DNA of 64,000 bases from Escherichia coli. Lineage in GTDB: Bacteria; Pseudomonadota; Gammaproteobacteria; Enterobacterales; Enterobacteriaceae. The translations under genes and the position numbers were made by a program. The notes beneath the pieces were generated by a model. It searched no databases, was not told where the DNA came from, and saw only the letters and a list, made by a program, of their open reading frames with translations. The stretch lies in NCBI RefSeq assembly GCF_002854065.1, contig NZ_CP024147.1. One strand, given 5' to 3'. Positions 60,229-62,639 of the stretch are shown here, piece after piece; within the stretch, counting starts at the first letter, position 1; every line of letters starts with the position of its first letter.

Positions 60229-61404
60229 ATGACAAATCAACCAACGGAAATTGCCATTGTCGGCGGAGGAATGGTCGGCGGCGCACTGGCGCTGGGGCTG
60301 GCACAGCACGGATTTTCGGTAACGGTGATCGAGCACGCAGAACCTGCACCGTTTGTCGCTGATAGCCAACCGGACGTGCGGATCTCGGCGATCAGCGCGG
60401 CTTCGGTATCATTGCTTAAAGGGTTAGGGGTCTGGGATGCAGTACAGGCTATGCGTTGCCATCCTTACCGCAGACTGGAAACGTGGGAGTGGGAAACGGC
60501 GCATGTGGTATTTGACGCAGCCGAATTAAAGTTGCCGTTGCTTGGCTATATGGTAGAAAACACTGTCCTGCAACAGGCATTGTGGCAGGCGCTGGAAGCG
60601 CATCCGAAAGTAACGTTACGTGTGCCAACCTCGCTGATTGCGCTGCATCGCCATGATGATCTTCAGGAGCTGGAGCTGAAAGGCGGTGAAGTGATTCGCG
60701 CGAAGCTGGTGATTGGTGCCGACGGCGCAAATTCGCAGGTGCGGCAGATGGCGGGAATTGGCGTTCATGCATGGCAGTATGCGCAGTCGTGCATGTTGAT
60801 TAGCGTCCAGTGCGAGAACGATCCCGGCGATAGCACCTGGCAGCAATTTACTCCGGACGGACCGCGTGCGTTTCTGCCGTTGTTTGATAACTGGGCATCG
60901 CTGGTGTGGTATGACTCTCCGGCGCGTATTCGCCAGTTGCAGAATATGAATATGGCACAGCTCCAGGCGGAAATCGCGAAGCATTTCCCGTCGCGTCTGG
61001 GTTACGTTACACCGCTTGCCGCTGGTGCATTTCCGCTGACGCGTCGCCATGCGTTGCAGTATGTGCAGCCAGGGCTTGCGCTGGTGGGCGATGCTGCGCA
61101 TACCATCCATCCGCTGGCGGGGCAGGGGGTGAATCTTGGTTATCGTGATGTCGATGCCCTGATTGATGTTCTGGTGAATGCCCGCAGCTACGGCGAAGCG
61201 TGGGCCAGTTATCCTGTCCTCAAGCGTTACCAGATGCGGCGCATGGCGGATAACTTCATTATGCAGAGCGGTATGGATCTGTTTTATGCCGGATTCAGTA
61301 ATAATCTGCCGCCACTGCGTTTTGTGCGTAATCTTGGTTTGATGGCGGCGGAGCGTGCTGGCGTGTTGAAACGTCAGGCGCTGAAATATGCGTTAGGGTT
61401 GTAG
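60229..61404 (+). CDS. ubiF: Ubiquinone biosynthesis flavin-dependent hydroxylase
   Basis: ORF 60223..61404; start set at MTNQPTEIAIVGGGMVGG (FAD-binding motif) for 391 aa. Confidence 0.93.
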   Translation: MTNQPTEIAIVGGGMVGGALALGLAQHGFSVTVIEHAEPAPFVADSQPDVRISAISAASVSLLKGLGVWDAVQAMRCHPYRRLETWEWETAHVVFDAAELKLPLLGYMVENTVLQQALWQALEAHPKVTLRVPTSLIALHRHDDLQELELKGGEVIRAKLVIGADGANSQVRQMAGIGVHAWQYAQSCMLISVQCENDPGDSTWQQFTPDGPRAFLPLFDNWASLVWYDSPARIRQLQNMNMAQLQAEIAKHFPSRLGYVTPLAAGAFPLTRRHALQYVQPGLALVGDAAHTIHPLAGQGVNLGYRDVDALIDVLVNARSYGEAWASYPVLKRYQMRRMADNFIMQSGMDLFYAGFSNNLPPLRFVRNLGLMAAERAGVLKRQALKYALGL

Positions 61405-61510
61405 CCTTACAACATTGCCGGATGCGTGCCAACCGTAGGTCGGATAAGACGCGGCAGCGTCGCATCCGACATTGAAGGATAAGACGTGTCAACATCGCAT
61501 TCGACATTGA
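61405..61510. repeat. REP elements, two adjacent related units
   Basis: GTAGGTCGGATAAGACGCGGCAGCGTCGCATCCGAC resembles the REP consensus, followed by a degenerate second copy (GGATAAGACGTGTCAACATCGCATTCGAC). Confidence 0.6.
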
Positions 61511-61520
61511 ATGAACGCAG

Positions 61521-61555
61521 AAAAGCAAAAAGCTCGCCGAAGCGAGCTTTTTTAA
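61521..61555. terminator. Bidirectional rho-independent terminator (ubiF and the tRNA operon)
   Basis: Hairpin AGCTCGC-CGAA-GCGAGCT flanked by A-rich and T-rich runs. Confidence 0.65.
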
Positions 61556-61557
61556 TG

Positions 61558-61632
61558 TGGCTGGGGTACGAGGATTCGAACCTCGGAATGCCGGAATCAG
61601 AATCCGGTGCCTTACCGCTTGGCGATACCCCA
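61558..61632 (-). tRNA. glnX: tRNA-Gln (anticodon CUG)
   Basis: 75-nt reverse complement of the tRNA-Gln sequence, including the CCA end; anticodon loop ATTCTGATT. Confidence 0.95.
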
Positions 61633-61669
61633 ACTGGGTGCACTTACAAGGTAAGCGTCTTGAATAAAT

Positions 61670-61744
61670 TGGCTGGGGTACGAGGATTCGAACCTCGGAA
61701 TGCCGGAATCAGAATCCGGTGCCTTACCGCTTGGCGATACCCCA
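61670..61744 (-). tRNA. glnV: tRNA-Gln (anticodon CUG)
   Basis: Identical copy of the 61558-61632 sequence. Confidence 0.95.
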
Positions 61745-61791
61745 ACAAATTGGTTTTGAATTTGCCGAACATATTCGACACATTCAGAATT

Positions 61792-61868
61792 TGGTGGCTA
61801 CGACGGGATTCGAACCTGTGACCCCATCATTATGAGTGATGTGCTCTAACCAACTGAGCTACGTAGCC
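61792..61868 (-). tRNA. metU: tRNA-Met (elongator, anticodon CAU)
   Basis: 77-nt reverse complement of elongator tRNA-Met, with CCA. Confidence 0.95.
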
Positions 61869-61883
61869 AGATTGTTTCTTCGA

Positions 61884-61958
61884 TGGCTGGGGTACCTGGA
61901 TTCGAACCAGGGAATGCCGGTATCAAAAACCGGTGCCTTACCGCTTGGCGATACCCCA
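61884..61958 (-). tRNA. glnW: tRNA-Gln (anticodon UUG)
   Basis: 75-nt tRNA-Gln with anticodon loop TTTTTGATA. Confidence 0.95.
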
Positions 61959-61992
61959 ATAACCGGGCGGTGAACCGCTTACTCGAAGAAGA

Positions 61993-62067
61993 TGGCTGGG
62001 GTACCTGGATTCGAACCAGGGAATGCCGGTATCAAAAACCGGTGCCTTACCGCTTGGCGATACCCCA
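61993..62067 (-). tRNA. glnU: tRNA-Gln (anticodon UUG)
   Basis: Identical copy of the 61884-61958 sequence. Confidence 0.95.
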
Positions 62068-62090
62068 TCCGTACAACGCTTTCTGGTGAA

Positions 62091-62175
62091 TGGTGCGGGA
62101 GGCGAGACTTGAACTCGCACACCTTGCGGCGCCAGAACCTAAATCTGGTGCGTCTACCAATTTCGCCACTCCCGC
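62091..62175 (-). tRNA. leuW: tRNA-Leu (anticodon UAG)
   Basis: 85-nt type-II tRNA with a long variable arm, with CCA. Confidence 0.93.
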
Positions 62176-62183
62176 AAAAAAGA

Positions 62184-62260
62184 TGGTGGCTACGACGGGA
62201 TTCGAACCTGTGACCCCATCATTATGAGTGATGTGCTCTAACCAACTGAGCTACGTAGCC
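62184..62260 (-). tRNA. metT: tRNA-Met (elongator, anticodon CAU)
   Basis: Identical to the metU copy. Confidence 0.95.
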
Positions 62261-62292
62261 ATCTTTTTTTCGCGATACCTTATCGGCGTTGC

Positions 62293-62350
62293 GGGGCGCA
62301 TTATGCGTATAGAGCCTTGCAGCGTCAACCTCTTTTTCAAGGAAAATTGC
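62293..62350 (-). promoter_or_regulatory. Stable-RNA promoter of the metT-leuW-glnUW-metU-glnVX tRNA operon
   Basis: On the minus strand: -35 TTGACG (62328-62323), 17-bp spacer, -10 CATAAT (62305-62300), then the GC-rich discriminator GCGCCCCGC and an AT-rich tract upstream. Confidence 0.6.
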
Positions 62351-62600
62351 TCGAAAGTGACTGTTTGGTTAGGTTGCGAACAGCGTGGCGCTATATTCGT
62401 CAATTATTGTTTACTTTGTGTTTTTTCCCCACCCTACAGCCATTCTTTTGTCATACAGGATGAAATTCGGAATTTAACAATAGTGGTGGGAAATTAATCT
62501 ATGAAATACTGGCCTACAGTAATGAGTTGTCAAACAGTGATGTGGCAAACCCGGAACATTTCCTTACTGCATATCAGAATCAACAAGCACCTCAATAACT

Positions 62601-62632
62601 GAAACAGCCCCGGATTTCACCGGGGCTGTTTC
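62601..62632 (-). terminator. Putative terminator downstream of asnB
   Basis: Hairpin AAACAGCCCCGG-(loop)-CCGGGGCTGTTT; the U-tract is weak. Confidence 0.45.
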
Positions 62633-62639
62633 GCATTTC

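Follow-up and report, generated by a model that had tools for sequence, protein, structure and literature searches.

The metT operon of Escherichia coli K-12, which has been studied for decades, is the closest described system to the tRNA array analyzed here. In K-12, the full-length transcript carries seven tRNAs; the cuts that separate these tRNAs are made by RNase P, RNase E takes off the terminator and helps to split metU, glnV and glnX, and 3' exonucleases finish the ends (PMC2241853). In an RNase P mutant, a metT precursor of ~125 nt accumulates whose 5' end is unprocessed, and leuW is described as unique to this operon (PMC2241853). The metT and metU genes are elongators that encode identical tRNA-Met (PMC6265465), and the duplicate tRNA2-Gln genes were the subject of a 1979 paper known here from its entry in reference lists. 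All genes for the four anticodons of the operon are located inside it, and the operon is undeletable without complementation (PMC11480407, PMC6265465). Thus, the operon is essential as a unit because it is the sole supply of elongator tRNA-Met, tRNA-Leu(UAG) and both tRNA-Gln isoacceptors. It also hosts the supE amber suppressor of cloning strains. The argQZYV, lysT-valT-lysW-valZ-lysYZQ and valUXY arrays likewise contain tandem tRNA genes of identical sequence that belong to a single transcription unit (PMC11480407). By contrast to these arrays, the metT operon has two duplicated blocks that are interleaved and is the only site of genes for four anticodons, for which reason it tolerates only a partial loss of copies.

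The window, a stretch of 64,000 nucleotides from E. coli contig NZ_CP024147.1 (assembly GCF_002854065.1), was found to carry a tRNA array on the minus strand at 61558-62260, flanked by asnB and ubiF. By use of ARAGORN, exactly seven genes were detected, arranged as Met(CAU)-Leu(UAG)-Gln(UUG)-Gln(UUG)-Met(CAU)-Gln(CUG)-Gln(CUG), which is the order and the set of anticodons given in the original prediction. All seven were matched by the Rfam tRNA model RF00005 with scores of 57.6 to 71.1 bits (E-values 5e-11 to 9.6e-15) and, at a gathering score of 29 bits for this model, none of them fell under the threshold in the covariance-model check that had been proposed. An identical set of seven tRNA genes is annotated between ubiF and asnB in K-12 MG1655. 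The locus shares with the K-12 metT operon its seven genes, their order and anticodons, the asnB and ubiF neighbors, and the promoter and terminator sequences, and differs from it by no more than a few single-base changes in the flanks. A stretch of 1,401 bp around the array had matches in 5,424 of 5,426 complete E. coli genomes, with 99.3% identity to K-12 MG1655 and 100% identity to strain 100416. Taken together, it is virtually certain that this locus is the metT operon, with one sigma-70 promoter, one transcript of seven tRNAs, an intrinsic terminator and identical gene pairs that recombine. Nothing was found to contradict this identification, and the operon, a textbook case, is already known and offers nothing new in kind. 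The co-transcription, processing and essentiality of the tRNA genes are published results from elsewhere; this analysis itself established the genes, the identity of the pairs, the conservation of promoter and terminator, and the presence of recombinant junctions in other genomes. As a discovery the locus matters little, and the only added value lies in a strain census and in a warning on collapsed assemblies. Open reading frames that run across the array (61295-61633 on the minus strand and 61486-61821 on the plus strand) were treated as spurious.

Table 1. Features of the metT operon and its flanks in the window, listed from upstream to downstream.
Feature	Coordinates	Strand	Basis
Conserved block, ~-72 to -111 from the predicted start	62363..62402	-	Alignment of 115 distinct Enterobacterales upstream sequences
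A-tract GAAAAAGAGG, abuts the -35 hexamer on its upstream side	62329..62338	-	AAAAA conserved at at least 90% across species
Sigma-70 promoter: -35 TTGACG (62328-62323), 17-bp spacer, -10 CATAAT (62305-62300)	62300..62328	-	Scan and conservation
GC-rich discriminator GCGCCCCGC	62291..62299	-	Read from the sequence, between the -10 and the predicted start
5' leader, ~30 nt, ending AAAAAAAGAU	62261..62290	-	Distance from the -10 to metT; PMC2241853
metT, elongator tRNA-Met(CAU), 77 nt, CCA encoded	62184..62260	-	ARAGORN; Rfam 71.1 bits; RefSeq tRNA-Met
leuW, tRNA-Leu(UAG), 85 nt, long variable arm	62091..62175	-	ARAGORN; Rfam 57.6 bits
glnU, tRNA-Gln(UUG), 75 nt, identical to glnW	61993..62067	-	ARAGORN; Rfam 62.1 bits
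glnW, tRNA-Gln(UUG), 75 nt	61884..61958	-	ARAGORN; Rfam; string comparison
metU, elongator tRNA-Met(CAU), 77 nt, identical to metT	61792..61868	-	ARAGORN; Rfam; string comparison
glnV, tRNA-Gln(CUG), 75 nt, identical to glnX	61670..61744	-	ARAGORN; Rfam 62.0 bits
glnX, tRNA-Gln(CUG), 75 nt	61558..61632	-	ARAGORN; Rfam; string comparison
Rho-independent terminator, 11-bp stem AAAAAGCUCGC/GCGAGCUUUUU, UUCG loop, U-rich tail	61518..61552	-	Terminator scan and fold

By direct string comparison, metT and metU, glnU and glnW, and glnV and glnX were each found to be identical letter for letter. The three identical pairs stood as predicted, and the repeat length of 75-77 bp that had been given for them proved slightly short, since with flanking bases counted the perfect repeats extend to 78 bp for metT/metU and to 77 bp for both glnU/glnW and glnV/glnX. 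The Gln(UUG) and Gln(CUG) genes differ from one another at 7 of 75 positions. From metT to glnX, the spacers within the array measure 8, 23, 34, 15, 47 and 37 nt; CCA is encoded in all seven genes, and ~16 nt of the upstream leader of metU resembles the leader of metT by repeat family search. The CAU tRNAs are of the elongator type as judged by their sequence, with a paired G1-C72 and an anticodon stem from which the GGG/CCC run is absent. Assignment of these tRNAs as initiator tRNA or tRNA-Ile2 was ruled out by this G1-C72 pair, by RefSeq, in which the K-12 counterparts are annotated as tRNA-Met, and by published work (PMC6265465).

The promoter of the operon was located by a consensus scan of the minus strand, in which the metT promoter scored 10/12 and no second sigma-70-like site was detected between 61200 and 62800. 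As a lone consensus match this site is not above chance (one site compared to 1.6 expected in shuffled sequences), and the promoter was therefore judged by its conservation across species. Orthologues were collected by a search for the metT-leuW junction in which each species was represented by one genome. The 120 Enterobacterales loci obtained in this way provided 112 distinct upstream sequences and ranged from Yersinia to Pantoea. Among these distinct sequences, the 17-bp spacing was found in 109, the -35 TTGACG in 106 and the -10 CATAAT in 107, and the discriminator GCGCCCCGC was identical in 107; by contrast, the center of the promoter spacer and most of the upstream DNA were variable. Such a pattern of conservation in the alignment is what a real promoter would be expected to show. 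The distance from the end of the -10 to the first base of metT is 39 bp here and ranged from 34 to 40 bp in all species examined. Thus, the promoter was taken as real based on its placement 39 bp upstream of metT and its conservation across species, and the hexamers, 17-bp spacer and GC-rich discriminator of the original prediction were borne out by scan and sequence at 62328-62291. Transcription would start at ~62292-62290.

Two further elements upstream of the hexamers were conserved. The A-tract resembles a proximal UP-element subsite, a reading carried over from rRNA and tRNA promoters in general. Within the more distal block, the positions kept at at least 90% were TG at 62402-62401, T at 62395, CA at 62387-62386, TG at 62382-62381, T at 62379, A at 62375, A at 62370 and CAAAC at 62367-62363. 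The block fits two G-N13-C cores that are spaced 20 bp apart, at ~-83 and ~-103 from the predicted start, and may be a putative activator (Fis-like) binding region.

With the -10 ending 39 bp before metT, the transcript would have a leader of ~30 nt, in agreement with the ~125-nt precursor (PMC2241853). At the other end of the operon, the stem-loop-stem of the terminator occupies 61552-61527, directly 3' of glnX; its fold was calculated at -17.9 kcal/mol (z = -4.45), and none of 200 shuffled sequences was as stable. The following course of expression is proposed. One sigma-70 promoter would give rise to a single transcript of ~0.77 kb that carries seven tRNAs and stops at the intrinsic terminator after glnX. 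RNase E would remove the terminator and help to free metU, glnV and glnX, RNase P would cut every mature 5' end, including that of metT where the leader is removed, and 3' exonucleases would trim the products to the genome-encoded CCA.

Stringently controlled promoters of rRNA and tRNA genes have a GC-rich discriminator as their hallmark, a feature that is present in the metT promoter between the -10 and the start. The metT discriminator is closely similar to that of rrnB P1 (GCGCCACC); the spacer of rrnB P1 is 16 bp compared to 17 bp in the metT promoter. The metT promoter shares with the stringent promoters rrnB P1, tyrT and pArgX a -35 close to consensus, A-rich DNA preceding this hexamer and a GC-rich discriminator. 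It is from the discriminator only that ppGpp/DksA and growth-rate control would be predicted for the metT promoter, and the searchable literature yielded neither a published report of ppGpp, stringent or growth-rate control of this promoter nor direct ppGpp data on it. As an alternative, the discriminator may be conserved for a reason other than ppGpp/DksA, such as sensitivity to supercoiling or structure of the leader RNA, with no stringent control of the operon. A conserved stretch of the transcribed leader (AACGCCGAT.AAGG) extends well past the discriminator, such that discriminator function alone is insufficient to account for the conservation, and supercoiling sensitivity is also tied to discriminator sequence (PMC8422995). 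The hallmark status of the discriminator and its resemblance to that of rrnB P1 weigh against this alternative, as does pArgX, another tRNA-operon promoter, which drives four tRNA genes and is reported to be inhibited by ppGpp (PMC5137449). We consider the alternative unlikely and favor stringent control. It is highly improbable that internal promoters, or read-through of asnB transcription, take the place of the single upstream promoter for some of the genes. While asnB is the upstream neighbor on the same strand and the hairpin after it has a weak U-tail on the minus strand, the scan of the minus strand between 61200 and 62800 provided no other promoter-like site, the spacers between the tRNA genes are short (8-47 nt), and Northern blots of K-12 revealed a full-length transcript of seven tRNAs and intermediates that all keep the 5' leader (PMC2241853).

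An inverted-repeat search revealed complementarity between the leader of metT (…CGCGAAAAAAAGAU) and a segment made up of the metT-leuW spacer and the start of leuW (ACCA-UCUUUUUU-GCG). The two arms, located at 62259-62275 and 62170-62186 on the minus strand, pair over 17 nt with 88% complementarity; the spacer is U-rich, and the resulting helix encloses the metT tRNA in the minimum-energy fold. The seven pairs nearest the tRNA were kept in 80-95% of 61 distinct orthologous sequences, and compensatory changes were observed in some divergent species (in Edwardsiella, -6.9 kcal/mol with its own spacer compared to -1.6 with the common spacer). Some lineages have lost this pairing, which is weak. 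We speculate that the helix slows RNase P at metT, which might explain the intermediates that keep their 5' leader until last. A functional helix that delays metT cleavage may, on the strength of this pairing, set the 3'-to-5' processing order of K-12.

Junction sequences of the array and synthetic queries built to match the predicted recombinants were used to search complete E. coli genomes (5,426). The repeated Met and Gln genes let normal genomes reach 80% coverage of the long synthetic queries, and such matches were not counted. For the one-copy Gln(UUG) and Met-Met deletion counts, shorter queries with unique flanks were used; for the Met-Met duplication junction, only top matches in a single piece were taken, and the loci were then inspected.

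By this comparison of tRNA copy number across strains, which the original prediction had called for, the locus was found to vary between 5 and 11 genes per assembly. The glnV-glnX junction was missing in 159 of the 5,426 genomes, and the exact one-copy Gln(CUG) product was detected in 156 (2.9%). Similarly, the glnU-glnW junction was missing in 85 genomes, with the exact one-copy Gln(UUG) product in 71 (1.3%). Three or more tandem Gln(CUG) copies were present in 27-29 genomes (~0.5%; two of the matches were weak). The leuW segment was found in 5,413 genomes, in which its extra copies totaled 22, and duplicated Met-Leu-Gln units were present in some genomes. Individual arrays, which were examined gene by gene, ranged from the five genes of TUM9757 (Met-Leu-Gln-Met-Gln), through the eight of OkiPb01695 with three Gln(UUG) copies, to the eleven of GF130 ((Met-Leu-Gln)x3-Met-Gln) and of Origami2-DE3; K-12 GM4792 had five tandem Gln(CUG) copies and Rosetta2-DE3 had three. 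These data bear out the view that the repeats act as substrates of deletion or expansion, as the exact recombinant junctions that it predicts occurred in 156 and 71 genomes and expansions in 29. In the mechanism we infer, the three identical pairs would be tandem duplicates, and unequal homologous recombination or replication slippage between the copies would add or remove genes and leave a low-frequency polymorphism among strains.

The expanded arrays in several laboratory derivatives of seven-gene parents imply either rapid change or assembly error. The Met-to-Met deletion junction was detected in 8 of the 5,426 E. coli assemblies. Among these eight, in which the collapse takes out essential genes, E. 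coli 536 (NC_008253.1; L006) has Met-Gln-Gln only and the MC1061 assembly (NZ_CP195014.1; L007) has Met-Gln only, such that both are without leuW and both Gln(UUG) genes. Real deletions are unlikely in these two, since leuW and glnU/glnW are unique and essential (PMC11480407, PMC6265465), and the short Met-Met arrays are most likely the product of repeat collapse in assembly. Collapsed reference assemblies of this kind are worth knowing when tRNA genes are counted from assemblies. The Met-Met collapse provides a rough artefact baseline of ~0.15%. The viable-looking one-copy variants (71 and 156 genomes) are 9 to 20 times commoner than the lethal-looking collapse; thus, the majority of them are probably real. 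Some of the copy-number variants are probably assembly errors. A stronger form of this argument, in which the variants are mostly artefacts of collapse or mis-expansion of the 77-78-bp perfect repeats and E. coli is effectively fixed at seven genes, would account for the eight assemblies with a Met-Met deletion junction, for the loss of reportedly essential unique genes from 536 and MC1061, and for the occurrence of variants in laboratory derivatives of seven-gene strains (GM4792, Origami2-DE3, Rosetta2-DE3 and MC1061). We consider it rather unlikely: beyond the difference in frequency, the one-copy variants were found in unrelated strains from many laboratories, the 77-bp repeats are shorter than ordinary sequencing reads, and other Enterobacterales species normally carry such variants. 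Among the 120 Enterobacterales loci, the form with seven genes was the most frequent (37 loci); a six-gene form with one Gln(CUG) ranked second (28 loci), and one Gln(UUG) was found in 8.

Real variation in copy number through recombination is the preferred reading, and the variation between 5 and 11 genes may be adaptive, by tuning the supply of tRNA-Gln, tRNA-Met and tRNA-Leu, rather than neutral or artefactual. We put forward only tentatively, as a pair of readings in which we place rather low confidence, that the leader-spacer helix is functional and that the variation in gene number is real, fast and adaptive.

The core arrangement Met-Leu(UAG)-Gln(UUG)n-Met-Gln(CUG)n, in which n varies, was observed across the 120 loci and was common to Salmonella, Citrobacter, Enterobacter, Yersinia, Pantoea, Photorhabdus, Edwardsiella and others, and the Enterobacterales orthologues share the near-invariant promoter TTGACG-17-CATAAT-GCGCCCCGC. 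The paralogues were non-identical in 27 of 99 sets for Met, in 31 of 91 for Gln(UUG) and in 25 of 57 for Gln(CUG). Many species thus have paralogues that differ, and three perfectly matched pairs, as found in E. coli, are not a universal feature.

Several minor observations were made on individual strains. In strain TP6-3 (NZ_CP139669.1; L003:871-945), recorded as a 'hospital' isolate, the promoter-proximal Gln(CUG) gene, at the glnV position, has a CUA anticodon; this amber-suppressor (supE-like) Gln gene is left unannotated by RefSeq. In published work, supE44 is assigned to the distal copy, glnX. This could mean that TP6-3 is a laboratory derivative of K-12 or that the allele passed from one identical copy to the other. 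In strain IH5 (NZ_CP168269.1; L002), the operon is split at a tRNA-Met gene, such that asnB and one Met gene adjoin purH/purD and the Gln(CUG) part is located ~1.6 Mb away; this represents either a large rearrangement that ends in the Met repeat or a misassembly. In KN13-4 (L004:1795-2232) and several other strains, an insertion of ~430 bp that carries a hypothetical ORF of 145 aa lies between asnB and the metT promoter; this insertion is absent from the window.

The flanks of the operon in the window carry two additional structures. A strong GC-rich hairpin of 14 bp is located at 62600-62633, just past the stop codon of asnB and upstream of the tRNA promoter, and is presumably an asnB terminator that shields the tRNA operon from read-through. 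On the other side, between ubiF and the operon terminator, two tandem 35-nt copies of GGATAAGACGCGGCAGCGTCGCATCCGACATTGAA that are 86% alike (61442-61511) look like extragenic palindromic repeats of the REP/BIME type.
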